From Candidatus Nomurabacteria bacterium (GTDB lineage: Bacteria > Patescibacteriota > Minisyncoccia > Phycocordibacterales > UBA9973): DNA of 64,000 nt. Where the stretch lies: contig CALRHR010000001.1 in NCBI GenBank assembly GCA_943359485.1, positions 51,141-115,140 of the forward strand, written 5' to 3'. This document shows, piece by piece, positions 9,378 to 62,133 of the stretch (within the stretch, counting starts at the first letter, position 1; every line of letters begins with the position of its first letter). A model generated the notes under the pieces. It saw only the letters and a program-made list of their open reading frames with translations. It was not told the DNA's origin and ran no database searches. Position numbers and translations under genes: made by a program.

Positions 9378-11186
9378 TTAAACAAGTTTGGCAGGCGCGG
9401 CGCCCTTGGTGGATATTTCTTCCAATAATTTTTTTAATAATTCTTCTTGTGACACATTCGACTTGCTAGTCTCAGTGCCATTCTCGCCTTCGCTCGTCGG
9501 CATTTGCCCTCCATCTCTAGATTCTAAAGTTAGTTTTCCACTTTCTATTTCTTTGTCTCCAATGACTACCCAATAAGGGATTTTATTGTTTTTTGCGTCG
9601 CGGACTTTTTTACCGAGATTTTCGTCTTCATTTGCTAGTTCTACTCGAATATTGTTTTCTTTTAATAACTCAAAAATATTTTTTGCATATTCATTATGAT
9701 TTTCTCGCACGGGTATGATTTTGATTTGCACCGGAGAGAGCCAAAGGGGGAAGTTCCCAGAGTAGTGTTCAATAAGTATTCCCATAAATCTTTCTGGAGA
9801 GCCTACAATTGCTCTGTGTATCATGACTGGAGTTTTTTCCTTGCCATCAGCATCGGTATAAGTTAGTTTAAATCTTTGAGGCATTATGAAATCAAGTTGT
9901 ATTGTAGAAATTTGCCACTCTCTTCCCAGAGAGTCTTTTGTAATTATATCCATTTTAGGTCCGTAAATTGCGGCTTCTCCAACACCTATTTCATATTTGA
10001 TCTTGTTTTCTTTTAAAATATTTTCAAGAATTTCTTGAGATCTTTCCCAGACTTCAGGACTACCTAGATATTTTTCTGGTTTTTCAGGATCCCAGAGAGA
10101 GAGTCTTATTTTGTAATTCATTTTGTAAGTCGTGAGAGCTTTCTTAACTACTCCAAGAATATTCTCAAACTCACTTTTTATTTGATCTTCTCTGCAAAAT
10201 GCGTGACCATCATCTTGGCAAAAGCATCTGAGTCTGGTTAATCCACTAAGTTCTCCTGGTCGTTCATCTCTATAAAGATTTGCAAAATCTGCATACCGGA
10301 TGGGTAGGTCGCGATAACTTCTCGGACGAGAAGCATATATTTGGGTGTGTTGTGGGCAGTTCATTGGTTTCAGAAAAAAGTCTTCTTCACTGTATTGTGA
10401 ACGAACAGTAAGCATGTCTTCTTTATATTTTTCATAATGACCAGAAATTTTAAATAATTCTGCTTTATTAAAATTTGGAGTATGTACTTCACCAAAACCA
10501 AGTTCAGCATTAAGTTCTCTACAGAAGTTTATTATGGAGTTACGAATAAAAGCTCCTTTTGGTGTGAACATTGGCATACCGCTTCCGACTAAGTCAGAAA
10601 ATACAAATAAGTCTAATTCTTTCCCTAATTTCTTATGATCCCTTTTTTTAGCTTCTTCTCTTTGGTCTATATATTTTTCCAATTCTTCTTTTGTTTCAAA
10701 TGCTAAACCATAAATACGGGTAAGCATTTTGTTTTTTTCATCTCCGCGCCAGTAGGCGCCGGCGACACGGTCGAGTTTGAAAGCATCAATGGGAAGATCT
10801 TTGTTTGGATGTTCTAAATGTCCTCCTTTGCATAAATCAACTAAAGTTCCAGATGTATAAAAAGTTAATTTTTTCCCCTCGGAGGCAAATTCCTCAAGCA
10901 GTTCAGTTTTGTATTCATTCCAGGCAAATTCCGCTCTAGCTTCTTCTAGTGTTACTTCGCGGCCGGTAAATGTATCCCAAGTCTTTATAATTTCCCGCAT
11001 TTTCTTTTCTATTTTAGGAAAATCTTCGACAGAAACTGCCTTTGGTAAATCAAAGTCTTGATAAAAACCATCATCAATAGCTGGACCAATGGCATTCTTG
11101 GCTCCTGGGTAGAGTTCTTTTATGGCTGTTACCAAAAGGTGTGCCAAGGTGTGTCTTATTTTGTAGGCATTAGTTACTTTTTCCAT
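9378..11186 (-). CDS. thrS: threonyl-tRNA synthetase
   Basis: Class II motifs are present including LTRLRCFCQDDGHAFC (ThrRS motif 2/3 region), along with an N-terminal HxxxH editing-like domain and a C-terminal anticodon-binding domain. Confidence 0.85.
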   Translation of the reverse strand: MEKVTNAYKIRHTLAHLLVTAIKELYPGAKNAIGPAIDDGFYQDFDLPKAVSVEDFPKIEKKMREIIKTWDTFTGREVTLEEARAEFAWNEYKTELLEEFASEGKKLTFYTSGTLVDLCKGGHLEHPNKDLPIDAFKLDRVAGAYWRGDEKNKMLTRIYGLAFETKEELEKYIDQREEAKKRDHKKLGKELDLFVFSDLVGSGMPMFTPKGAFIRNSIINFCRELNAELGFGEVHTPNFNKAELFKISGHYEKYKEDMLTVRSQYSEEDFFLKPMNCPQHTQIYASRPRSYRDLPIRYADFANLYRDERPGELSGLTRLRCFCQDDGHAFCREDQIKSEFENILGVVKKALTTYKMNYKIRLSLWDPEKPEKYLGSPEVWERSQEILENILKENKIKYEIGVGEAAIYGPKMDIITKDSLGREWQISTIQLDFIMPQRFKLTYTDADGKEKTPVMIHRAIVGSPERFMGILIEHYSGNFPLWLSPVQIKIIPVRENHNEYAKNIFELLKENNIRVELANEDENLGKKVRDAKNNKIPYWVVIGDKEIESGKLTLESRDGGQMPTSEGENGTETSKSNVSQEELLKKLLEEISTKGAAPAKLV

Positions 11187-11266
11187 ACTTCTACAATAGC
11201 ACATTTTTAATTTTTACAAAACATTTCGTTTGCTTTTAACCTTGAATATGCTAATATGTATTCATT

Positions 11267-11491
11267 ATGGTAGTAAGAATGAGACATACAAAATCGCATA
11301 CGAAGAATCGTCGAAGTCATCATGCTTTGGAGAGTACAAGCTTTACAAAATGTGAAAACTGTAAAGTATTGAAAAGGCGTCACACTGTGTGCTCTCTCTG
11401 CGGATTTTATCGCGGTAAAAAAGTATTGGATTTAGTAAAAAAAGCTGAAAAGAAACAAAAGAAAGAAAAAGCAAAGAAGGCACAAGCATAG
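11267..11491 (+). CDS. rpmF: 50S ribosomal protein L32
   Basis: Matches bL32 over RRSHHAL...CxxC...YRGKKV. Confidence 0.75.
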   Translation: MVVRMRHTKSHTKNRRSHHALESTSFTKCENCKVLKRRHTVCSLCGFYRGKKVLDLVKKAEKKQKKEKAKKAQA

Positions 11492-11563
11492 CGATTAGGC
11501 CTTAGGCACTAGGCACTAGCAAATTAACGCTAAAGCCTAACGCTTAGAGCCTAACGCCTAAAC
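11491..11563. repeat. CTAGGC/CCTAAC hairpin repeat element
   Basis: The 5' arm is TTAGGCCTTAGGCACTAGGCACTAGC and the 3' arm is GCTAAAGCCTAACGCTTAGAGCCTAACGCCTAA; the arms are imperfectly complementary. It belongs to a family with copies at 5497, 23445, 51621 and other sites. Confidence 0.6.
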
Positions 11564-11565
11564 AA

Positions 11566-12534
11566 ATGGCAAATAGGCACCTTTCAAGATCAATAGTGCT
11601 TCAGACTCTTTTTGAGTGGGATTTCTTGCTTGCCTCGCAGAAGCAGAGCGAAGGCGGGCCTGCAGAAAAAAAGGGTGCAAATTCTCGGGCTGGCCAAATT
11701 AAAGAAATATTAAATAAAAATCTAAAAGAATTTGCTTCCGGACTCGAGGATGATAATTTTGTTTTATCTCTCATTGACCAAGTATTGGAAAAACAATCCA
11801 AAGTTGATGAAATCATAGAAGCATCCGCACCAGACTGGCCAATAGACAAGATTTCTGTGGTGGACAGAAATATCCTGCGAATTGGGTTGACGGAGCTTCT
11901 TTTTGGTGACAGGTCGCAGGTGCCTCCGAAGGTGGCGATAAATGAAGCCATAGAATTGGCAAAAACTTTTGGCGGAGAAAATTCCGGTAAATTTATAAAT
12001 GGCGTGCTTGGCTCAGTTTATAAGGAGATAGGCTCTCCGGGCAAGGAACAAATTAGTAAAAATACATATGCTGATAAGCCACTCGACATCTCAGAACTTC
12101 CAGTAGAAAAAAAGGGCGGAGCGTTGGTTTATACTAAAGGAGAAGATGGTCAATTTTTATTGGCTTTAGTGCATGATGTTTTTGGTTACTGGACTATATC
12201 CAAGGGAGGTATTCTAAATGAAGAAAATGAAAGAGAGGCGACAAAGAGAGAAATAAAAAAAGAAATTGGAATCGACATAGAGATAGAAAAAAAACTTGGA
12301 GAGAATGAATATGTGGCTTCTCACCCATCCAAGGGAAAAAGTTTAAAAAAAGTAGTTTACTTTTTGGCATATAGCGAGTATAAAGAGTTGGTGCTCGAAA
12401 AGTCGAGCGGACTAGACGGGGCCAGGTGGTTTGAACTTTCTCTTATACCAGAATTGCGTATATATAACGACATCATTCCACTTATCAGTAAAGCAGTCGA
12501 AATACTGGGTAGTGAAAAGTCACAAAGTTTATAA
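11566..12534 (+). CDS. nusB: NusB antitermination domain fused to C-terminal NUDIX hydrolase domain
   Basis: The N-terminal part contains [27 protein letters not shown], the NusB signature. The C-terminal part contains the NUDIX box [22 protein letters not shown]. Confidence 0.75.
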
Positions 12535-12550: not shown

Positions 12551-13258
12551 ATGACAAATAAAACAACAGATCTCGCAGATTTTGAGAAAAAAATAAAAAT
12601 AATTTTTAAAGACAAAAATTTACTTAAGCAGGCTTTCATTCATCGTTCTTACATTAATGAAAACACCGGCACAAAACTTTCACACAATGAAAGGCTTGAG
12701 TTTTTGGGTGATGCCGTGCTAGAGCTCATTGTCACCGACTTTTTGTATAAAAAATATCCGAGCTATACCGAAGGGGAACTGACGGCTCTGCGTTCGGCCT
12801 TAGTCAATGCCGTTATTATTTCTGAAATGGCTCTTGCTGTCGGTATGAATGATTATTTGTTTTTATCAAAGGGTGAATCCAAAGATAACGGCAAAGCAAG
12901 GCAATACATTTTAGCAAATACCTATGAAGCATTTATTGGGGCTTTGTATTTAGATCAGGGTTATGATGCGGTGGATAAATTTGTTTACAAAACTTTACTT
13001 GGCAAGACAGATGAAATAGTAAGTAAAAAACTTTGGCGTGACGCCAAGTCTTTGGTACAGGAACGAGCGCAAGAATTTGTAAATGTTACGCCTGCATACA
13101 AAGTTCTATCCGAGTCTGGCCCTGATCATGACAAGCATTTTACTGTTGGTATTTATTTCGGGCTTAATTTAATTGCTCAGGGTAAAGGTAAGTCTAAACA
13201 AGAAGCCGAGCAGAAAGCAGCCGAAGCTGCCCTAAAGGTGAAGGATTGGATGGATTAA
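12551..13258 (+). CDS. rnc: ribonuclease III
   Basis: Contains the ERLEFLGDAVLEL signature and a C-terminal dsRBD. Confidence 0.9.
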   Translation: MTNKTTDLADFEKKIKIIFKDKNLLKQAFIHRSYINENTGTKLSHNERLEFLGDAVLELIVTDFLYKKYPSYTEGELTALRSALVNAVIISEMALAVGMNDYLFLSKGESKDNGKARQYILANTYEAFIGALYLDQGYDAVDKFVYKTLLGKTDEIVSKKLWRDAKSLVQERAQEFVNVTPAYKVLSESGPDHDKHFTVGIYFGLNLIAQGKGKSKQEAEQKAAEAALKVKDWMD

Positions 13259-13277
13259 ATATGGTAAGATAAGCATC

Positions 13278-15413
13278 ATGCGGCTTAAACATCTCGAACT
13301 AAATGGTTTTAAATCTTTTGCTCAAAAAACAGTTTTGGAATTTGAGACTCCAGTTGTGTGTGTAGTTGGACCAAATGGTTCTGGAAAATCAAATGTAGTG
13401 GAGGCATTTCGTTTTGTCTTGGGTGAGCAGTCTATGAAGTCTATGCGTGGTAAATCCGGCCTAGACCTTGTTTTCAAAGGTTCAAAAAATTTACCGAAAG
13501 GTAGCCGAGCGAGTGTATCTATTTATTTCAATAACCCTGATAAAGTTTTTAAGCTTGAAAATGACGGTGGGGAAAATATAAATTTAAATTACGATACTAT
13601 CAGTATTTCCCGTGAAGTTTATATAGATGGACGGAATATTTACACTTTAAATGGTAGCGAAGTTCGTTTGAAAGATATTCATCAGCTTCTTTCTTCGGTT
13701 AACATAGGCGCAAGTGGGCACCATATCATTTCGCAAGGTGAGGCCGACAGAATCTTGAATGCAAATCCGAAAGAGAGGAAAGAAATGGTGGAAGACGCAT
13801 TGGGGCTGAAAATTTATCAATATAAGATCAAGGAGAGTGAGCGCAAGCTTGAGCGAACAAATACAAACATGAAAGAAGTGTCGATGTTGCGACGAGAAAA
13901 TGCTCCGCATCTTAATTTTTTAAAAAAACAAGTAGAAAAATTTGAAAAGGTAAAAGAAATGCAGGCTGAGCTTGCAACTCTTTACATGGAGTATCTGGGG
14001 AAAGAAAATGTTTATTTAGAAAAAGCAAAGAAAAATCTCTTACTAGAAAGAAAAAATATTACAAGTGAGCTTGAGAGTGTAACCAAAAAAATCTCTGAGA
14101 CTAAAGAAGAAAAGGAAAATAAAAAAATAGAAGAATTAAAAATAGTTGAGTCAAAATTAAACGAACTTCGCTTACAAAAAGGTGAACTAGAACGAAAACT
14201 TGGTCGCATTGAGGGAATACTGGAAGCTAAAGAGCACAAGGTTAATCTTGCTGGCAGGTGTCCTTTGTGTGGCAGTGTTATCAAGAAAATAGATCCGGAA
14301 CAGATAGAAAAAAAAGACCACGAAGAAAAAGAATTAGCTGAATTGAAAAATTCGCAAGTGGAGATTCTTGCTCTGATTGAAAAAATAAAAATCGAAGAAG
14401 ATATGCAGTTGAGTTTTGTTGAAAAGTTGAAAACAGAAATAAATCAAGAAATGGAAGCCTTGCGAGACCTGGAGCGAGAAAAGTTTACCTGGAAAGTTAG
14501 AAATCAAGAGCTTCATTCTGCCCTCGATCTTTTACTTATAAAAGAAGGGAATTTGAAAGTGCGCACGGAGTCTTTTGAAAATGAAATCAAGGAAGGTGTG
14601 GCTCTGGTGGGGCAAAACATTTTGGCTTTTCGTAACTCTGTTATTTCAGCCGACACATTGGACATAAATGAGGTTGAGCAGACAGAACTCAAGAAAAGAA
14701 TCGAACGGTTAAAAATAAAATTAGAAGACGCGGGTCTTAGTAACGGGGCTGAACTGATAAAAGAATTTGAAGATATGTCGCAGAGGGATCTATTTTTAGC
14801 GAAAGAGCTCCTCGATCTTACTAAGAGCATTGAGTTCTTAGAGAAACTAATTGCAGACTTGAAAGAAAAAATTGATAAAGAGTTTAAAGAAGGAGTAAAA
14901 AAAATAAATGTGGAATTTCAAGAATTCTTTACACTTCTCTTTGGTGGGGGACACGGCGCGTTAGCTATTGTGGTAGAAAACAAAAAGAAGAGACGGAGTG
15001 AGGATGAATCTCTCGAAATCTCTCGAGATGATTCTACTGAATCAGATATTGTTTTTGAACAGGGGATCGAGATCAATGTTTCGCTTCCGCGCAAAAAAGT
15101 TAAAGAACTACATGCATTGTCCGGAGGGGAACGGTCACTCACATCTATTGCACTCCTTTTCGCTATGTCGCAAGTCAATCCACCACCATTTTTAGTACTA
15201 GACGAAACAGATGCTGCGCTTGATGAAGCGAATTCGCGTAAATATGGCGATATGCTGGAGAAACTTTCCAAAAGTTCCCAACTTATTGTTGTGACTCACA
15301 ATCGTGAGACTATGTCTCGCGCTGGAGTGATTTATGGGGTGACCATAGGGAGGAACGAAGCCTCCAAGCTTCTCTCTGTTAAATTCGATGAAGCTGCCGC
15401 GATTGCAAAATAA
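13278..15413 (+). CDS. smc: SMC-family ATPase with shortened coiled coil and central CxxC (zinc-hook-like) motif
   Basis: The head has the N-terminal Walker A FKSF...GPNGSGKSN...FVLGEQS and C-terminal LSGGERSLTSIALLFAM...LVLDETDAALD. It is only 711 aa and carries CPLCG at the coiled-coil apex. Confidence 0.7.
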   Translation: MRLKHLELNGFKSFAQKTVLEFETPVVCVVGPNGSGKSNVVEAFRFVLGEQSMKSMRGKSGLDLVFKGSKNLPKGSRASVSIYFNNPDKVFKLENDGGENINLNYDTISISREVYIDGRNIYTLNGSEVRLKDIHQLLSSVNIGASGHHIISQGEADRILNANPKERKEMVEDALGLKIYQYKIKESERKLERTNTNMKEVSMLRRENAPHLNFLKKQVEKFEKVKEMQAELATLYMEYLGKENVYLEKAKKNLLLERKNITSELESVTKKISETKEEKENKKIEELKIVESKLNELRLQKGELERKLGRIEGILEAKEHKVNLAGRCPLCGSVIKKIDPEQIEKKDHEEKELAELKNSQVEILALIEKIKIEEDMQLSFVEKLKTEINQEMEALRDLEREKFTWKVRNQELHSALDLLLIKEGNLKVRTESFENEIKEGVALVGQNILAFRNSVISADTLDINEVEQTELKKRIERLKIKLEDAGLSNGAELIKEFEDMSQRDLFLAKELLDLTKSIEFLEKLIADLKEKIDKEFKEGVKKINVEFQEFFTLLFGGGHGALAIVVENKKKRRSEDESLEISRDDSTESDIVFEQGIEINVSLPRKKVKELHALSGGERSLTSIALLFAMSQVNPPPFLVLDETDAALDEANSRKYGDMLEKLSKSSQLIVVTHNRETMSRAGVIYGVTIGRNEASKLLSVKFDEAAAIAK

Positions 15414-15517: not shown

Positions 15518-15706
15518 ATGGCAGATTTACAAGCTTTGTGTATGAAGTGCAGGACTAATAATAAGCCGACCATGCAGAAGATGACTAACCCAGTGGTTAC
15601 TAAAAACGAAAAGGGGAGGTATTCAGCTAAGGGCACTTGTGCCGTATGTGGAGGCAATATGTTCAAGTTTATGTCTGCGGTTGATGGAGAGGCGATGATG
15701 AAATAA
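15518..15706 (+). CDS. small zinc-ribbon protein
   Basis: Two CxxC pairs (CMKC...CAVCG) in 62 aa, with a terminator immediately downstream. Confidence 0.5.
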   Translation: MADLQALCMKCRTNNKPTMQKMTNPVVTKNEKGRYSAKGTCAVCGGNMFKFMSAVDGEAMMK

Positions 15707-22104: not shown

Positions 22105-22267
22105 TAAAGTATAAATAATTTTTAGAGCAAAGATTGAACTCTAACGAATCCAACAAAAATAATACGAATCGTAACATCCAAGGGTCGACGATGCAAAGCA
22201 TCGGAGATACTGAGGAGCGAAGCGACGAATGTACTGTTTTTTGTTTTGTTTCGTTCTAATTAACTTT

Positions 22268-23910
<1,643 letters not shown>

Positions 23911-24137
23911 TTGAAAACTATCCCGGTCCTCTTCGGAGGGCTGAGTGTCAGACCCGTTCTGACCGGATTTATTGAGTCGGTATTGTGTCGCTCAATTGAC
24001 GACACAATAGTTTTTGCTCAAACTTAAAATGAGCTAGACTATATGGAAAGACATATAAAATAAAAAAGTTTCAGCCTTCGGGCTGATCCGCCTCTGGCGG
24101 AAAAAAGGAACGAAACAAAACAAAGGACAGTAACAAA

Positions 24138-49654: not shown

Positions 49655-50050
49655 ATGAAAAATATAAAAAAAATTCTCATAAATATCACGGCATTCCTGA
49701 TTGTATTTATGTTGCTTGTTACACCAGTATTGTCTTTTGCGTATAATATCAGGGATCCGATAGTGCCACCTTGTCCGGCGACTGGGTGTGGGTGGAATGA
49801 ATTTTTAATGCTTATAAACAATGTAATTTATTTTATTCTGTATGGTTTGGCTATGCCTATTGCTGCCATTATGTTTGCGTATGCCGGAGTTCTTCTCGTC
49901 CAAGCGCAAGGTGGGGAAGCCAAAACTAAAGCCAAAGAAATTTTCCTGAACGCTGTGTACGGCCTGGCCATAGCCGCCGCTGCCTGGCTGATAGTCAAAA
50001 CCTTACTCGCTGTGTTGGGTTACAAAGATGCCGCTTGGATTGGATTTTAG
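49655..50050 (+). CDS. small two-TM secreted/membrane protein, member of paralog array (pilin-like architecture)
   Basis: Signal peptide, a CPATGC pair, then helix, an AKTKAK loop and a second helix. Confidence 0.55.
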   Translation: MKNIKKILINITAFLIVFMLLVTPVLSFAYNIRDPIVPPCPATGCGWNEFLMLINNVIYFILYGLAMPIAAIMFAYAGVLLVQAQGGEAKTKAKEIFLNAVYGLAIAAAAWLIVKTLLAVLGYKDAAWIGF

Positions 50051-50053
50051 TGT

Positions 50054-50482
50054 GTGTATGTTATAATAAAAGCAATGAAATTTATTAAGAAAAATTTTTA
50101 TATCATAGTACTGCTGACTTTTTTGGTTGTTATGCCTATCCTTTCTTTTGCGCAAGCTACGCCTGGCGGGAACCCTATAAGTACACCTGGTGGAAATGCC
50201 GGATGTGACCCCTCGAAGAAAATCTGCAATCCGATAAAAACCGACACCTTAAATGGCTTTATCAGGGCTATCCTTGAAGGCGTCTTCAAGATCGGCTTGC
50301 CTATTTTAGCGTTGGCATTTGTTTTTGTTGGTTTTCTGTTTGTGCAGGCCAGGGGTAATTCGGAAGAATTGACCAAGGCCAAAGATGCTCTGTTGTATAC
50401 TTTAATCGGTGCAGCGGTGATCCTCGGGTCGTGGGCTATCGCACAGCTTATCACTGAAACAGTGACCGCATTAAAACCGTAA
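50054..50482 (+). CDS. small two-TM protein paralog
   Basis: Signal peptide ending SFAQA, a Cys pair, then helix, an EELTKAKD loop and a second helix. Confidence 0.55.
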   Translation: MYVIIKAMKFIKKNFYIIVLLTFLVVMPILSFAQATPGGNPISTPGGNAGCDPSKKICNPIKTDTLNGFIRAILEGVFKIGLPILALAFVFVGFLFVQARGNSEELTKAKDALLYTLIGAAVILGSWAIAQLITETVTALKP

Positions 50483-50517
50483 GGTATGGTTGATTATTAA
50501 TAAAAATAAAAATAAAT

Positions 50518-50820
50518 ATGATGTGTAATCAAGAAGGTTTAATTGAAATGGTGTGTAGGTTGGGTGATCTTTTCAGTATTGTTGTTCCGGTATTAGTGGG
50601 CTTGGGAGTTGTTTACTTTGTCTGGGGTGTCGTTCAATATGTTATTGCTGATGATGTAGAGGCAAAGTCGAAGGGCAAAGACAGGATAATCTTTGGCATT
50701 ATCGGTTTGGCTGTGATTGTTAGTTTGTGGGGGTTAGTGTTCATTCTTACGGATACTTTTTTTGGTGTAGATGCAGGCATGGAAGGTGCCCCTGATTTTC
50801 AAGGTCTACTTCCTGAATAA
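50518..50820 (+). CDS. small two-TM protein paralog
   Basis: Has the core YFVWGVVQYVIADDVEAKSKGKDRIIFGIIGLAVIVSLWGLV. Confidence 0.55.
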   Translation: MMCNQEGLIEMVCRLGDLFSIVVPVLVGLGVVYFVWGVVQYVIADDVEAKSKGKDRIIFGIIGLAVIVSLWGLVFILTDTFFGVDAGMEGAPDFQGLLPE

Positions 50821-50825
50821 AAAAT

Positions 50826-51563
50826 ATGAAAAAATACGCACAAAAAATAGTAAAATTTATTCCAATACTTTTTATTTTAACCTTTGTTCCATTTTTAGTT
50901 TTTGCCCAACCCATACCCCCTTCTGCGCCTTCCGGTTTGGCTGCTGTAATAAATAAAATCAGTGCTTTGCTTAGCTCACTTCTCCCCGTACTTATTTCCC
51001 TAGGAGTACTCTATTTTATTTGGGGAGTTATTATTTATTTTATTGCTGACGATGCAGAGGCAAAGTCGAAGGGCAAAGACAGGATAATCTACGGCATTAT
51101 CGGCCTTGCTGTCATTGTCAGTGTTTGGGGACTGGTTGCCATCTTAAATCAAACTCTTGGTTTGAGTGGGAACTCTGGTTTATCTGGCGTGAGTGCTCCT
51201 TCTAGTATTTCAAATTTGGCACCCTCTTCCAATGTATTACCTTCATGTTCATATATGATAAGTAATAAACCAAAGCTGGCGAATTATCTGGAGTACTTTA
51301 CTTGTATAATTGCTCAATCAGTCATCCCACTTATCTTTGCCATAGCTGTCGTGACCTTTATCTGGGGTGCGGTAAAGTTCTTTATCATCAATGCGGAAGA
51401 GGAAGCCAAAAGAGATCAGGGCAAGCAGTTCATGCTCTGGGGTATTATTGCCCTCGCGGTGATGATCAGTGTTTGGGGTTTGGTCAAAATTCTGGGAGAG
51501 ACCGTGAATATAGATACAAACTATCTGCCTTCAGTTCAGCCGTACAGTTCATCCCGGCCGTAG
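50826..51563 (+). CDS. small two-TM protein paralog with a tandem-duplicated helix-loop-helix module
   Basis: Signal peptide followed by two copies of the module (ADDAEAKSKGKDRIIYG... and NAEEEAKRDQGKQFMLWG...). Confidence 0.55.
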   Translation: MKKYAQKIVKFIPILFILTFVPFLVFAQPIPPSAPSGLAAVINKISALLSSLLPVLISLGVLYFIWGVIIYFIADDAEAKSKGKDRIIYGIIGLAVIVSVWGLVAILNQTLGLSGNSGLSGVSAPSSISNLAPSSNVLPSCSYMISNKPKLANYLEYFTCIIAQSVIPLIFAIAVVTFIWGAVKFFIINAEEEAKRDQGKQFMLWGIIALAVMISVWGLVKILGETVNIDTNYLPSVQPYSSSRP

Positions 51564-51620
51564 CCCTTGCTTTTATTATTAGTATGTTTGTGTTAGAATT
51601 AACAGGTCGTTTATTAATTA

Positions 51621-51700
51621 AGTCAGGTACTAGGTGTTAGGCGCTAGGCATTAGCATAAAATCAAGCTAAAGCTTAAAGTCTAAATTCCTAAAGCCTAAA
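51621..51700. repeat. CTAGGC/CCTAAA hairpin repeat element
   Basis: The arms CTAGGTGTTAGGCGCTAGGCATTAGC and GCTAAAGCTTAAAGTCTAAATTCCTAAAGCCTAAA are imperfectly complementary. Confidence 0.6.
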
Positions 51701-51703
51701 AAA

Positions 51704-52090
51704 ATGAAAAATAAATTAATGGTTTTGTCGGGTTTTGTTATGGGTTTGGTTCCGGTCGTGGCGTTAGCGCAGAATACTGGTGGTACTCCTACTGTGTGTA
51801 CTGCGGGTCCTGTGACAACCTTTCAGGGTGCCTTGTGTAAAATTGGGGAGATTATGAATGCAATCATTCCGATTTTGATAACACTGGGTGTACTGTACTT
51901 TGTCTGGGGAGTTATTTCGTATGTTATTGCTGATGATGAAGAGGCAAAGTCAAAGGGACGAGACAGGATAATCTACGGTATTATCGGCTTGGCTGTTATC
52001 ATTTCTGTTTGGGGATTGGTGAAGATTTTGTCAAATACTTTTGGGCTTACAAATGTACAGCAAATTACTTTTCCGACTGTTTCTTACTAA
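51704..52090 (+). CDS. small two-TM protein paralog
   Basis: Signal peptide and a Cys pair, then the core YFVWGVISYVIADDEEAKSKGRDRIIYGIIGLAVIISVWGLV. Confidence 0.55.
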   Translation: MKNKLMVLSGFVMGLVPVVALAQNTGGTPTVCTAGPVTTFQGALCKIGEIMNAIIPILITLGVLYFVWGVISYVIADDEEAKSKGRDRIIYGIIGLAVIISVWGLVKILSNTFGLTNVQQITFPTVSY

Positions 52091-52140
52091 TCTATAAAGT
52101 GTCGCACCAAGAATCGTGCGACATGATTTCGTAAAATCAC

Positions 52141-52488
52141 ATGAATTTATTTCTCGGTCTTTTCTCTGCCAGGGTGGCTTATGCGAGCGTTGATACCTTT
52201 ATGAATAGCGTAGGCGAGCTTATCATAAATCCGCTCATCAATTTTCTTTTTGCTCTAGCGGTGGTGTATTTTCTGTATGGCGTGTTTGAATTTCTGTCCA
52301 ATCAGGAAAATGAAGACAAGAGAACAGCCGGCAAGAGCCACATGCTTTGGGGAATTGTCGGCATCACCATCATGATGGGTGTGTGGATCATCTTTGGTCT
52401 TATTCTGGACACTTTTAACTTAAGAGGTGACATAGATGTCAGTTCAGGAGGGGTTATAAATGTGAAGTTGCCACCATACAATCCTTAA
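52141..52488 (+). CDS. small two-TM protein paralog (divergent)
   Basis: A helix, an ENEDKRTAGKSHMLWGIVG loop and a second helix. Confidence 0.45.
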   Translation: MNLFLGLFSARVAYASVDTFMNSVGELIINPLINFLFALAVVYFLYGVFEFLSNQENEDKRTAGKSHMLWGIVGITIMMGVWIIFGLILDTFNLRGDIDVSSGGVINVKLPPYNP

Positions 52489-53160: not shown

Positions 53161-53248
53161 CGCGATGTTTTCATGAGCCCTCCTTTCTCCGAAGTTGATC
53201 TGCTTCGGGCAGAGACCTTCTTTGCGCTGGTCAGGCGCTCCGAGAGAA

Positions 53249-54253
53249 TTACTCCCGGATGTATACACCTGTGGCTGGGGTTGCCCCCTCGCCACAGAAC
53301 TTCCAGATCCCCGCCATCCCGATGGACGGCGGGGGGGTGGTGCCGAAGGTCTCTGTATGAGATCCTCCGTCCGGGTCAAACACCTTCATGGAGCCCCGAT
53401 CGGGACCCCACTGGCTGTTGATCCGTAGGTTCCGTTCGTAACAGCCATCTGTTCCGAACGGGTAGAGGGTGGGTGTCGGCCCTACCTTCGCGGGCGCCGG
53501 GGCTGTCGAGGCCACCGGCGTGGATGTCCGGCTACCTGCCGGTGAGGGGGGTGCGGGAGGTAACAATCCCCCAAAAAATCCACCCACTGTCTCCCGGATC
53601 TCGGTCCCGACCCGTTGGGCTACTTTGTCGCCGACTACAGCCTTTTTTGCTGTGTCGATAGCCACTGGGCCGATGCCGCGCCCCTCGGATGCCGCCTGAT
53701 CTGCTTCCTCCCACTTCGTCGTGGGGGCGGGAATCGCGGGGACCGTCATTGGCGTCGCCGACTTCGGCCGAGCCATCTCGGCCGATCGTGGCATTTCCCT
53801 TGCCACGAAAAGGGAAATCAACACTATTCCGAAGATGGTGAGCGCTGGCTTCACTCGGCCGTGTGCCGTCATTGCGGCGATCACGACCGAACAAAAAAAC
53901 AGCGCTACCCAAATTAAGATATCCGTACTGGCTGTTGGGTATAGCCATGGGCGTGGTCCCGTGGTGAGAAAGTAGCTGAAGGCGAAGTTATTGCTAACTC
54001 CGACAACAGTAGTTCCCACCATCATGACGAATGTAAGCGTAGAGAACCCGACGATGAATTTCTTCATTCCATCGGAAATTCCGCCGCCGTGTGCCGCCGC
54101 GGGTCGCGAGAGGCCGCCCCAGCCTTGGTGCTGGGCCAGCTTGTAAAGGCCGTACAGCACTCCGCCGACGATAGCGACGGTCCAGGGGTTCCAGCCGAAT
54201 GAGCTCGACACCCAATACACTCCCAGGGCCGCGATTGCAAATTTCCAAAACAT
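53249..54253 (-). CDS. polytopic membrane protein with Pro/Thr-rich extracellular C-terminal region (GC-rich island gene C)
   Basis: Several predicted TM helices and a high-GC codon bias. The leader repeat lies immediately upstream. Confidence 0.55.
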   Translation of the reverse strand: MFWKFAIAALGVYWVSSSFGWNPWTVAIVGGVLYGLYKLAQHQGWGGLSRPAAAHGGGISDGMKKFIVGFSTLTFVMMVGTTVVGVSNNFAFSYFLTTGPRPWLYPTASTDILIWVALFFCSVVIAAMTAHGRVKPALTIFGIVLISLFVAREMPRSAEMARPKSATPMTVPAIPAPTTKWEEADQAASEGRGIGPVAIDTAKKAVVGDKVAQRVGTEIRETVGGFFGGLLPPAPPSPAGSRTSTPVASTAPAPAKVGPTPTLYPFGTDGCYERNLRINSQWGPDRGSMKVFDPDGGSHTETFGTTPPPSIGMAGIWKFCGEGATPATGVYIRE

Positions 54254-54254
54254 T

Positions 54255-54600
54255 TCATTTCTTCCTTAACTCCGTCCCCTTGACTGGGCAACATGGAGTT
54301 GGAGCAGACTGATCAGAGTACTACAACCGCTTGCGCGTTTGTCTTACTTTGAATAGTCTGCCCGCTAGGAAGCCGGATTTTTTCTCTCCTCTCCTTACCC
54401 CCTCCGCTTTCAGCACCTCCCCCTAAATAGGGGGAGGCCGGGTAGGGGTACAAAGGGGTGAGGGTTCAGCTACATGGCGGGCAAACCATTCATTTTGCTC
54501 GAAATTCTACTTACTTCTTATTTAATTTTCGAAGGTCAGCTTTACCTATGTATTGTATCACACTTATGACAAAAAGTCAAGCCCTTTGGGCTGAATTTGT
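54255..54600 (-). promoter_or_regulatory. ~310-bp AT-rich leader, copy 1: near-consensus sigma-70 promoter plus structured 5' UTR
   Basis: On the minus strand the promoter reads TTGACT-N17-TACAAT (about 54560-54590). The leader has a conserved P1 hairpin UCGAAAAUU...AAUUUCGA and a closing helix UGCCCG/CGGGCA around a variable GC-rich core. It is duplicated at 56190-56500. Confidence 0.6.
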
Positions 54601-54783
54601 CCTTATTTTGTAAGGTTAAAATGATAAAAGGGCCGCCTCAGTGAAGAGACAGCCCTTTGTTTTGCGCTGGGCCTGTGCGCGATTTGGGCCCTGGGTTGAC
54701 GAGTCCCCGTTGCGTCACTCTGGTTTGTTCCCTCCAGACGGGAGACCTCTATTTTGTAAGCGCTGGTCAGGTGCTTTGTCTTT

Positions 54784-55281
54784 TTAGGGGCAGTACCGGC
54801 TTGCCCCCTCTTCGAGGGGGTTGAACGGCCGTTTCTTCCCGTCCTCCCCGACGATCTCGTCGGGGCAGCCGAATTTCTTGTGTTTGGGGGTCCCTACCCC
54901 CAGAATTTTGTCGACGGCCTGGTCGAGCGCTTGCCCGACAGAGACCGCCGACTTGCCGTCGCCGAGTCCAAGACTCCCGAGGACCTTGTTGATCCCCTCG
55001 AGGGCCGCGTTCCCGGCGGTCTTTCCGATCTCAAGCGCGCGCCGATTGCGCAGCGCGCGGGCCTTGGCTAGAATCGTCGGAGTGCTGTCCTCCGGATGCG
55101 CCTCGAGCCAGGCCAGCGTCTTGCTGGCCCCGTCATAGAGCGCCTTCGCTCCCTCGATTGTTGTAGCGGCTGGAGCCTTCTCCAGAGCCGCCACTTTCTG
55201 CGCCATTTTTTCTTGTCGGCTGGCGCCACAACCGACCGCCGTGAGTGCCACGGCGAGCACGAACGTCAAGAGGAAATTCAT
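54784..55281 (-). CDS. putative lipoprotein (GC-rich island gene B)
   Basis: The signal sequence MNFLLTFVLAVALTAVGC has a lipobox-like Cys, and a strong GGAGG SD lies upstream. The region is high-GC. Confidence 0.5.
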   Translation of the reverse strand: MNFLLTFVLAVALTAVGCGASRQEKMAQKVAALEKAPAATTIEGAKALYDGASKTLAWLEAHPEDSTPTILAKARALRNRRALEIGKTAGNAALEGINKVLGSLGLGDGKSAVSVGQALDQAVDKILGVGTPKHKKFGCPDEIVGEDGKKRPFNPLEEGASRYCP

Positions 55282-56153
55282 TTCTTCCCTCCCCCTCCAA
55301 ACATTCCCTTGACTATCCACTCCAGGGGCTGGGTGACTACCTCACCCAGGGAGTGTTTGGCGGCCAACTCCCCAATGCCGCCAATCTTCCATTTCCTAAT
55401 ACCCCCGAGGACCTCGTCCCAACGGGAGCAGACGATGGCTCCGACGAGCGCTATCATCTGCCACCCGAGAACTCCCCACCCCATAGCCTTCTCCCCGAAG
55501 AGAAACGAGTTAATGGTTGCCCAAAAACCGAATTCCCCCAGGGGATCCTCGAGCGGAGTCGTTGCCACAGCCCAGAACTGGGCTTTGGCGATTTCGATGG
55601 GGTTTAGGGTTGCTGGCGCCGCGGTAGGGTCCACCCACCACAAAAACACCACCCCTAACACCATCCACACCGTCGTGCGAAGTACCCAGTTGTTGTCGCC
55701 GAGCCGGATCAGGACACTCCGCCCGATCTCCGCAGCCCCACGGCCGTGAGTCTCGATTCCCGCGAAGATGGCGAAGACCGCGAGCGTGGTCACGAGGGCA
55801 ACTAGCGTAAAGGCTGGGTAGCCGAACCAAAAACCGAAGACGATCCAGTAGAGTACTATGAACAGCGCCCCCCAGAATCCCACGGTCTTCGGCTTGATCA
55901 CTACCTCGCCTTCGTCGCAAGCGCCATCGCCTACGACTTCGGCCCTAATGATGTGTCGTCCCGGTTTGAGGTCTTTGAGCTCGAAGCTCGCGACCCCGCC
56001 TTCCGTCTTTACGGCGCGCTTGCGCTTGCCGTCGACCGAGAAACGAACCTGGACTTCTTTCTCGCCACCTTTTTTCCCGGCGGTGGCCGGCCGGTCTGAC
56101 ACGACGGCTTCCGCCACCGTGTCTTTCTCTACTAAACTCAAAGTCAAAATCAT
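55278..56153 (-). CDS. membrane protein with N-terminal soluble beta-rich domain (GC-rich island gene A)
   Basis: Starts MILTLSLVE after an AGGAGA SD, has several TM helices and shows high-GC codon bias. Confidence 0.55.
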   Translation of the reverse strand: MILTLSLVEKDTVAEAVVSDRPATAGKKGGEKEVQVRFSVDGKRKRAVKTEGGVASFELKDLKPGRHIIRAEVVGDGACDEGEVVIKPKTVGFWGALFIVLYWIVFGFWFGYPAFTLVALVTTLAVFAIFAGIETHGRGAAEIGRSVLIRLGDNNWVLRTTVWMVLGVVFLWWVDPTAAPATLNPIEIAKAQFWAVATTPLEDPLGEFGFWATINSFLFGEKAMGWGVLGWQMIALVGAIVCSRWDEVLGGIRKWKIGGIGELAAKHSLGEVVTQPLEWIVKGMFGGGGKK

Positions 56154-56189
56154 TATCTTTCTCCTAATCAAATTTTTTCTCGAGCACAC

Positions 56190-56500
56190 GATTCAGAATA
56201 CTACAACCACTTGCGTGTTTGTCGTTTCCTGAATAGTCTGCCCATCAATGAGCCGATGCATTTCCTCTCCCTGCGAAGGGGGAGATTTGAGAGGGGGTCT
56301 CAAGAATTACCACCCCTAGCCCCTCCTTAATCAAGGAGGGGAGGAAACATAAAATACTCAGCTTCTTAACGGGCAAACCATTCATTTCCCCGCCAGTCTG
56401 GCCGGGGTAAATTGCTCGAAATTCTACTTACTTCTTATTTAATTTTCGAGTAACAGCTTTACCTATGTATTGTATCACACTTATGACAAAAAGTCAAGCC
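56190..56500 (-). promoter_or_regulatory. ~310-bp AT-rich leader, copy 2
   Basis: About 100 bp are near-identical to copy 1, including TTGACTTTTTGTCATAAGTGTGATACAATACATAGGTAAAGC, and the same P1 hairpin and closing helix are present. Confidence 0.6.
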
Positions 56501-61323: not shown

Positions 61324-61341
61324 TGTTTTTCTGTTTCTTTG

Positions 61342-61413
61342 AGGCGTGGGTGGGAATCGAACCCACGCATGTCGGTTTTGCAGACCGAAGCGTTACCATT
61401 TCGCCACCACGCC
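61342..61413 (-). tRNA. tRNA-Cys (anticodon GCA)
   Basis: Acceptor stem GGCGTGG/CCACGCC and anticodon loop CUGCAAA. Confidence 0.75.
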
Positions 61414-62133
61414 TTTTAAATGAAAATCGATTATTTTTCTAATTTTCCTATCAACAACCTTTGGTCGTAATTCAAAGTAGTTATTGAATATTTTAAATTT
61501 TCGCATAAAAAATGAATTAATGCTAGTGCCTTTGTATATTAGTTTGAATATTTGTAGAGAATCTTTTGTGTTGTATATTGCTTGGAAAGATCTCTTACTT
61601 GAATAAATTTTACCTTCTTTAATCCCAATTTTTCTAAAAACATGATTCATTTTTTCAAGAAATATTTTACTACCACTAGTAAATATCACACGAACCCTTT
61701 TTATTATTAATTTTTGGGTTTTACCTTTGGTTTGTGCAAAGTGAACACATCCATCTCCATCAAAATATCCCCTCATAAAATGACCTAAGTATTTTTGTGG
61801 AACTTTTGGGAACTTTATAGTTAGAGATTTGTTTGGATATAGACCTAATCTAAAAAGGTCATTGTATATTTTATGACTACCTATTCTTAACGCAAAGCAA
61901 ACTTTTCCTCTGATAAAATTCGACCTTTTCTGGTTTGTTTTGTGTTCTGAACCCAACCATGTTTTTATTCTTTCTATGGAATCTTTATCTGTGCTAGCTA
62001 TTTGGATATATTTACCACGCATATAAGGTGAATCATCCAAACTTCCATCAGCATAAATATATCCCAAAACATAGGCCATATTCGGGGACCATTTTTCGAA
62101 GAATTTTTCATTAACTTTATATTTTATTCCCAC
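61393..62133 (-). CDS. LAGLIDADG-family homing endonuclease (two-motif, single-chain)
   Basis: Two LAGLIDADG motifs are present (LGYIYADGSL and MRGYFDGDGCV). The last 7 codons GGC GTG GTG GCG AAA TGG TAA coincide with the 5' end of tRNA-Cys on the same strand. Confidence 0.75.
   Translation of the reverse strand: MGIKYKVNEKFFEKWSPNMAYVLGYIYADGSLDDSPYMRGKYIQIASTDKDSIERIKTWLGSEHKTNQKRSNFIRGKVCFALRIGSHKIYNDLFRLGLYPNKSLTIKFPKVPQKYLGHFMRGYFDGDGCVHFAQTKGKTQKLIIKRVRVIFTSGSKIFLEKMNHVFRKIGIKEGKIYSSKRSFQAIYNTKDSLQIFKLIYKGTSINSFFMRKFKIFNNYFELRPKVVDRKIRKIIDFHLKGVVAKW

Follow-up and report, generated by a model that had tools for sequence, protein, structure and literature searches.

The hinge is regarded as a defining and functionally important domain of SMC proteins, serving dimerisation, DNA binding and possibly DNA entry. 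The arms of canonical Smc comprise about 330-350 amino acids (aa) per strand and span 47-50 nm (PMC5344682, PMC5526789). In Bacillus subtilis, exchange of the Smc hinge for the zinc hook of P. furiosus Rad50 allows normal growth on rich medium, and the Smc arms can be shortened, working only at particular lengths (PMC5344682). The Rad50 zinc hook is described in a further report as a constitutive dimerization module interchangeable with the SMC hinge (PMC6969161). Here we describe a gene (13278..15413, + strand) in a 64,000-nucleotide (nt) stretch of the genome of a Candidatus Nomurabacteria bacterium (GCA_943359485.1, contig CALRHR010000001.1, positions 51,141 to 115,140), hereafter the window, with a guanine-cytosine (GC) content of about 37%. 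From its sequence and its structural model, this gene is probably the Smc orthologue (SMC/condensin ATPase) of an ultra-small Nomurabacteria/Paceibacterota (Patescibacteria) bacterium, hinge-less, of half the usual length and ending in a Rad50/SbcC-type CPxCG tip; we refer to its product as the short Smc. Evolution appears to have built a construct of the laboratory type in a large lineage of bacteria, and in its true Smc orthologue.

The gene and the identity of its head

Exactly one open reading frame (ORF) with an ATG start was listed at this position of the window, encoding 711 aa, and all the motif strings quoted for it in an original prediction made from the DNA alone are present in it. 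Its features are the following, with the evidence for each in brackets; model confidence is given as the predicted local distance difference test (pLDDT).

13278..15413, + strand: short smc ORF, 711 aa plus stop (ORF listing; Pfam, NCBIfam and PDB sequence matches)
13278..13808, + strand: ABC head, N-terminal half, aa 1-177 (alignment with residues 1-206 of the B. subtilis Smc head)
13368-13391, + strand: Walker A, GPNGSGKS, aa 31-38 (motif location)
13728-13742, + strand: Q-loop, ISQGE (motif location)
13809..14249, + strand: predicted arm helix of the N-terminal strand, aa 178-324, interrupted at 275-281 (AlphaFold2 DSSP, pLDDT about 80-92; TIGR02168 positions up to 305)
14217..14351, + strand: putatively exchangeable tip cassette, aa ~314-358, differing between hook-type and Cys-free relatives (protein and DNA alignments)
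14250..14294, + strand: predicted loop at the apex, aa 325-339, holding GRCPLCG, the putative zinc hook (AlphaFold2, motif, conservation)
14253-14288, + strand: GRCPLCGSVIKK, aa 326-337 (motif location)
14259-14270, + strand: CPLC, aa 328-331 (motif location)
14295..14942, + strand: predicted arm helix of the C-terminal strand, aa 340-555, interrupted at 445, 454-464 and 486-489 (AlphaFold2; TIGR02168 positions 850 onward)
14943..15410, + strand: ABC head, C-terminal half, aa 556-711 (aligns to the C-terminal region of the B. subtilis Smc head, E 4e-28)
15117-15131, + strand: signature LSGGE, aa 614-618 (motif location)
15192-15206, + strand: Walker B, LVLDE, aa 639-643 (motif location)
15210-15224, + strand: D-loop (motif location)
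15288-15302, + strand: H-loop (motif location)

Other motifs of the head were located at aa 11-14 (FKSF), 46-52 (FVLGEQS) and 621-630 (LTSIALLFAM), and the catalytic motif residues are invariant in two alignments of 47-48 sequences. The whole protein contains only three Cys, at positions 28, 328 and 331.

As judged from its sequence, the head is of the true SMC type, in agreement with what had been predicted. The Pfam family SMC_N covers aa 3-696 (E 5e-61, 206 bits), and the bacterial Smc equivalog TIGR02168 (SMC_prok_B) scores 484.1 bits on the 711 aa, against at most 58 bits for the Rad50 models of NCBIfam, 45 for ASRP, 44 for RecF, 40 for RecN and 33 for SbcC. The curated equivalog cut-off of 567 bits was not reached, because the part of the protein corresponding to the middle of the profile is missing. 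By sequence, the closest solved structures are Smc heads of B. subtilis (E 1e-72), with Rad50 heads at E 1e-13, and a Foldseek search with the AlphaFold2 model returned 5XEI (Smc head, coiled coil and joint) at the top, followed by condensin and cohesin heads, with Smc-ScpA complexes among the best matches and Rad50 at rank 15. In the databases, proteins of this type are named "chromosome segregation protein" or "AAA family ATPase".

Membership in three other families was considered and rejected. All Rad50/SbcC models scored at most 58 bits against cut-offs of 478-1087, and the RecN model 40 bits against a cut-off of 408. The ASRP/ClsN model NF045487 scored 45 bits against a cut-off of 300, and the host is bacterial, with a bacterial 16S ribosomal RNA (rRNA) gene in the window and with identical or nearly identical proteins that bear the labels Candidatus Nomurabacteria, Paceibacterota or Parcubacteria.

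Absence of the hinge and of the distal arms

In the profile alignment to TIGR02168, aa 2-316 fall on positions 1-305 and aa 347-702 on positions 850-1180; the approximately 545 profile positions in between (~306-849), which correspond to the hinge and the distal arms, are replaced by about 30 residues. No match to the Pfam family SMC_hinge was detected at E<=1 with the whole protein or at E<=10 with the apex. The AlphaFold2 model, built on a 47-sequence alignment, shows a single long antiparallel helical hairpin made of helices 178-274 and 282-324 and, after the turn, 340-444, 446-453, 465-485 and 490-555, with CPLC inside a 15-residue apical loop (325-339), a pLDDT of 80-92 along the arm helices and no folded domain at the apex. 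A hinge-like fold around the CxxC, without the geometry of a Zn hook, had been named as the outcome that would speak against a miniaturised, hinge-less protein; the model shows a bare loop between two confident helices, and the absence of the hinge is borne out by the profile alignment, the Pfam search and the predicted structure alike.

The arm helices comprise approximately 147 aa on the N-terminal and 216 aa on the C-terminal strand, and the former would span roughly 22 nm if it formed a canonical coiled coil. In the model, the interruptions of the C-terminal strand at 445-490 probably represent the "joint" of SMC proteins, an element that 5XEI also contains. We consider it fairly probable, jointly with the orthology to Smc and the reading of the tip given below, that the protein lost its hinge together with the distal ~55% of each arm, and that it retained a complete head, the part of the arm next to the head with the joint region, and a loop at the tip.

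The CxxC motif at the apex

The original prediction placed a Rad50-like CxxC at the mid-point of the protein. It lies at the apex of the predicted hairpin, and aa 328-331 of 711 are slightly N-terminal of the arithmetic midpoint. Among the matches listed, 120 of 120 homologues (70-100% identity) carry CPxC followed by Gly, in many of them as the only Cys pair, and so do all the 186 non-redundant hook-type proteins of the group (CPxC); such invariance in the 120 homologues indicates that the motif is not a chance feature. When the 98-aa apex was searched against 177,635 distinct PDB sequences, the best matches were the zinc hook of P. furiosus Rad50 in 1L8D (E 0.008) and 6ZFF (E 0.03), with GRCPLCG aligned on GKCPVCG, and the apex of a relative from Vogelbacteria (CPVCGQ) matched the Pfam hook family Rad50_zn_hook (PF04423) below threshold, at E 0.004. 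The motif, its context, its conservation and its predicted place where an antiparallel coiled coil turns back all fit a Rad50-type hook, and the likeness to Rad50 that had been predicted is supported by these matches. The expectation that homologues should keep the Cys pair stood only in part, as all the short-tip homologues keep it and those devoid of the pair have a different, longer tip.

An alternative tip in the wider family

The wider family was explored through an exhaustive search of 1.84 billion cluster representatives, from which the best 150 matches were analysed. All of them are short and hinge-less, with sizes of 524-782 aa and identities of 42-69%; 148 span 643-782 aa, and the other two (524 and 584 aa) look truncated. 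Few carry a taxon name, and the named ones belong to Paceibacterota or Vogelbacteria only. An apical CxxC was found in eight of these 150. Seven were detected by a mid-protein test; the eighth, with CPLCG, belongs to the group of the window itself and is truncated at its N-terminus. The remaining representatives have a longer tip, and often not a single Cys in the whole protein. The seven divergent hook-like representatives (P0135, P0160, P0162, P0183, P0192, P0201 and P0267) are of 663-719 aa and 44-51% identity, with the motif C[IRAG][YTAM]C[AGKN]Q, or CPVCGQ in the Vogelbacteria protein, and they appear at four or five separate places of a crude sequence tree, so there may have been several gains or exchanges of the hook.

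Closer to the window, a Cys-free tip of about 90 aa was detected in 27 of 80 species-level relatives, whose orthologues are otherwise 61-89% identical. These loci are the following.

smc mostly at 10001-12280 (locus coordinates): Cys-free-tip loci L044, L050, L052, L054-L057, L059-L066 and L068-L079

The Cys-free tip matched no Pfam family and showed no remnant of a hinge. The AlphaFold2 model of one such protein (m7812a323de09) places two extra short helices (336-355 and 359-374) between the arm helices, with moderate confidence.

In the case of locus L072 (JAMPXW010000001.1) and of "Candidatus Saccharibacteria" third-party annotation records such as L004, L010 and L013, the titles of the records (Burkholderiales, Saccharibacteria) clash with the genes of Nomurabacteria/Paceibacterota type around smc, and these records are probably mis-binned or mislabelled.

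Probable tip exchange between close relatives

The non-redundant set of the Nomurabacteria-level group comprises 271 proteins, 186 with the hook and 85 without it, and the two forms are interleaved in the group, not separated into clades. Mean identity outside the tip is 0.763 between hook proteins, 0.740 between non-hook proteins and 0.741 between types; the nearest neighbour bears the other tip type for 19 of 87 sequences, and both types occur within 5 of 29 tight groups, defined by a flank identity of at least 85%. These measures were used because the neighbour-joining (NJ) tree was too poorly resolved to count switches. The pair L006 (hook) and L075 (non-hook), for example, is 88.9% identical outside the tip. 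Close pairs of this kind are near-identical up to RKLGRIEG, continue with either "...KISGRCPLCGSEIK..." or "...VEISQEEIKNIINEIN...IKPVLESIKNILKKF..." and rejoin near LKNSQ, after about 45 residues in the hook form or about 90 residues in the non-hook form. At the DNA level, they are 70-90% identical along the gene; only in a stretch of 270-360 nt at the tip, with sharp borders, does this value drop to 23-47%.

A module of 90 residues cannot emerge from nothing time and again. The simplest reading of these alignments is that recombination with donors of the other type has replaced the tip repeatedly, and the tip has most likely been swapped several times between close relatives. This in turn suggests that it constitutes a separable, exchangeable module.

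Genomic context and search for partners

The context of the gene was analysed in the window and in 80 related loci, one per species-level genome and all from distinct assemblies, with smc recognised in 78 and one smc per locus. Directly upstream in the window, separated by a gap of 19 nt (13259-13277), lies the following gene.

12551..13258, + strand: rnc (RNase III), directly upstream of smc (Pfam Ribonucleas_3_3, E 2e-36, plus dsrm)

The same neighbour precedes the short smc in 69 of the 78 loci (43 hook, 26 non-hook), within a conserved upstream order thrS / rpmF / nusB-NUDIX / rnc. Downstream, rpsP, a gene for a KH-domain protein and trmD follow in many loci. We take this arrangement to correspond to the order rnc-smc-ftsY...rpsP-ylqC-trmD of B. 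subtilis. The conserved rnc-smc neighbourhood argues for a Smc orthologue, not an accessory paralogue.

The product of nusB-NUDIX is a NusB-NUDIX fusion protein of 322 aa (window 11566-12534, directly upstream of rnc-smc), and the fusion is kept at this place in about 45 related loci. Immediately downstream of smc (15518-15706) there is a gene for a DUF5679 protein of 62 aa with two CxxC pairs, a family that is absent from the conserved neighbours, the analysis of which took only ORFs of at least 70 aa.

In agreement with the original prediction, no ScpA, ScpB or SbcD was found in the window, either by Pfam on 20 unannotated or context ORFs or by phmmer, with the SbcD probe unchecked. The probes for ScpA and ScpB matched solved chains at E 1e-49 to 1e-63; the SbcD negatives rest on a probe without such a check. 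Likewise, phmmer and a motif search revealed none of the three in 3,381 ORFs from 81 sequences (1.57 Mb), no relevant Pfam match was detected in about 1.8 kb beyond the downstream end of the window, and no kleisin-, kite- or nuclease-like family was found among the conserved neighbours of smc in the related loci. In other bacteria scpAB usually lies apart from smc, so its absence from this neighbourhood says little about partners.

Proposed function and alternative explanations

A wider proposal has, in our estimate, an even chance of being right: that Paceibacterota organise their chromosome with a hinge-less, half-length Smc whose tip dimeriser is a cassette, either a zinc hook or a Cys-free two-helix cap, repeatedly swapped by recombination. 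For the gene itself, the proposed mechanism, which belongs to the fairly probable reading given above, is that two protomers would be constitutively joined tip to tip by one Zn2+ held by four Cys, two from each chain, and the hook would thereby stand in for the hinge. The heads, engaging and disengaging under the drive of ATP, would work a small SMC rod or ring on a chromosome of about 1 Mb, with a kleisin from a gene located elsewhere probably closing it. The toggling between hook and helical cap in near-identical natural proteins is what the interchangeability of hook and hinge (PMC6969161) predicts.

Several points weigh against the gene being a Smc with a zinc-hook tip that works in this way. 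The 1L8D match of the apex is weak (E 0.008), and PF04423 gave no match with the window apex. The head regions of both AlphaFold2 models have a pLDDT of only 35-60, so the geometry of the head rests on homology. The tip-switch analysis, by NJ and identity, is simple and its number of events uncertain, a Fitch count of 20 switches being surely inflated by the poor resolution of the tree. No ScpA, ScpB or other conserved partner was found within +/-10 kb of smc in the 80 related genomes, and about 8.7 kb of DNA upstream of the window contained no ScpA, ScpB or other relevant gene. A second, canonical smc may exist elsewhere in the genome. Finally, a cycle like that of Smc-ScpAB is an assumption, and Zn binding, dimerisation at the tip, a chromosomal function and the partners are what we infer for the short Smc.

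One alternative is that the CxxC acts within a single chain, as a turn-stabilising, metal-binding or redox motif, and that the protein is a monomeric hairpin or dimerises through its heads or coiled coil in the manner of RecN, a short, hinge-less SMC-superfamily ATPase that dimerises via its coiled-coil tip. The silence of the Pfam hook model on the window sequence would be explained in this way, and close relatives function with a Cys-free tip, which implies that Cys is not obligatory for the family. However, two Cys per chain are insufficient for a tetrahedral Zn site on their own, G[KR]CP[VL]CG is the context of the Rad50 hook and gave the best PDB match of the apex, and the strict invariance of both Cys and the next Gly in proteins often otherwise free of Cys suggests a specific site for a metal. 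The tip of the other type, being a longer helical module, fits two ways of making the same tip contact. We regard an intramolecular motif as unlikely. Improbable too is an SMC that works without kleisin or kite, for instance as an ATP-gated DNA clamp or bridge, ScpAB having been lost in a reduced genome. It would account for the absence of ScpA and ScpB, both sought with validated probes, from the 64-kb window, the ~8.7-kb flank and the 1.57 Mb around smc in the 80 relatives, but, given that distance between scpAB and smc is the general rule, absence from the neighbourhood carries little weight. Moreover, the extreme C-terminus of the head, which is the site for the winged helix of ScpA in solved complexes, is almost invariant to the last residues, and Smc-ScpA complexes are among the best fold matches. 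In favour of this reading, archaeal Smc complexes without a kite subunit are reported (PMC7055376).

A Rad50/SbcC-type ATPase for the repair of DNA ends that merely resembles SMC would show the same zinc-hook-like apex, short arms and lack of a hinge, all hallmarks of that family, but we judge it very unlikely. The SMC equivalog scores 484 bits against at most 58 for every Rad50/SbcC model, Smc heads in PDB match at E 1e-72 against 1e-13 for Rad50, and Rad50 reaches only rank 15 in the fold search; in addition, no SbcD/Mre11 adjoins smc in the 80 genomes (as searched with the unvalidated probe), no nuclease is a conserved neighbour and the housekeeping rnc-smc synteny is conserved. The probability is lowest of all, to the point of being hardly credible, for an SMC-like sensor of a defence system, such as LmuB of Lamassu or mad3 of MADS. 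PADLOC did score mad3 at 205 bits and LmuB at 101 bits, and LmuB, too, is short and SMC-like and bears a zinc hook on its ATPase (bioRxiv 10.1101/2025.03.14.643221), but the mad3 model covers head positions only and scores like the generic SMC_N (206 bits), far below TIGR02168 (484). Furthermore, neither LmuA/LmuC nor MADS genes are found nearby, the neighbours being core genes, and this core-gene context is conserved with one copy per genome in at least 78 species.

Other features of the window

A bacterial 16S rRNA gene is located at 22266-23911. Its 1,646 nt, compared with a model of 1,533 positions, include about 110 extra nt that are possibly insertions, and no 23S rRNA gene adjoins it, which indicates that the rRNA genes are unlinked. 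Another region, a block of about 3 kb at 53200-56200, has 52-65% GC in a genome of ~37% GC and may be a foreign island or a mis-assembly; its ORFs, all on the minus strand (53249-54253, 54784-55320 and 55278-56189), gave no Pfam match. An array of six small membrane-protein ORFs extends from 49655 to 52488, the two that were scanned matching T4SS_pilin (PF18895) and the others sharing, by eye, the same C-terminal motif. Finally, a free-standing LAGLIDADG endonuclease ORF (61393-62133, minus strand) overlaps with its 3' end the gene for tRNA-Cys (61341-61413).

Comparison with known systems

A full-text literature search returned no account of a zinc hook in a natural bacterial Smc, of a short Smc of Patescibacteria or of an exchange of tip modules. 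If the wider proposal, with its two exchangeable tip modules, is true, the SMC hinge would be dispensable in nature, where only some dimeriser at the right arm length would be required, and the functions specific to the hinge would not be universal. The family would then provide a natural data set for models of arm length and phase, and also a compact SMC (~80 kDa, with an arm of roughly 22 nm) far easier for cryo-electron microscopy or single-molecule work than SMCs of 50 nm. A further question is whether such an SMC has partners in genomes of about 1 Mb, and which ones.

With the bacterial Smc of Smc-ScpAB, the short Smc shares the head, the ATPase motifs, the head-proximal coiled coil, a probable joint and the position after rnc. 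In contrast to it, the short Smc has neither the hinge nor the distal part of arms that measure ~340 aa in the former, ends in a CPxCG loop and had no ScpAB in the DNA searched around it. Its design is that of the engineered Smc(Zh) and Mini-Smc of B. subtilis (Burmann et al. 2017, PMC5344682), with a hook for the hinge and shortened arms; however, Smc(Zh) is a laboratory chimera with the hook of P. furiosus, whereas the short Smc is natural and widespread. Its arms are also below the shortest functional engineered class (253-267 aa) and nearer to a minor natural mode of 163 aa (PMC5344682), a survey in which heads and hinges were placed by alignment, so that hinge-less proteins would go uncounted.

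Marine Actinobacteria also have SMC variants without a hinge, members of a true SMC clade (Sussfeld et al. 2025, PMC12153180). They are explicitly devoid of CxxC, come from another phylum and are not described as shortened, whereas the family described here is from Patescibacteria and of half length, its tip being either a hook or a pair of helices. Lamassu LmuB and the archaeal ASRP/ClsN (PMC9389158) are also short ATPases of the SMC superfamily, and their coiled coils are tipped by a zinc hook, as those of the short Smc would be, but both are distant (101 and 45 bits, respectively) and neither is a Smc orthologue; LmuB depends on LmuA and LmuC, and ASRP is restricted to archaea. RecN differs in its score (40 bits against a cut-off of 408) and in having no CxxC. 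With the zinc hook of Rad50/SbcC (1L8D, 6ZFF, PF04423), finally, the short Smc shares G-[KR]-C-P-[VL]-C-G, placed in its case at the predicted turn of an antiparallel coiled coil, although its head is not of the Rad50 type, no Mre11/SbcD is a neighbour and the match to PF04423 is sub-threshold or absent. In conclusion, the short Smc is a Smc by descent and by its head, departs from Smc in its hinge, its arm length and its equivalog score, and is Rad50-like at its tip.

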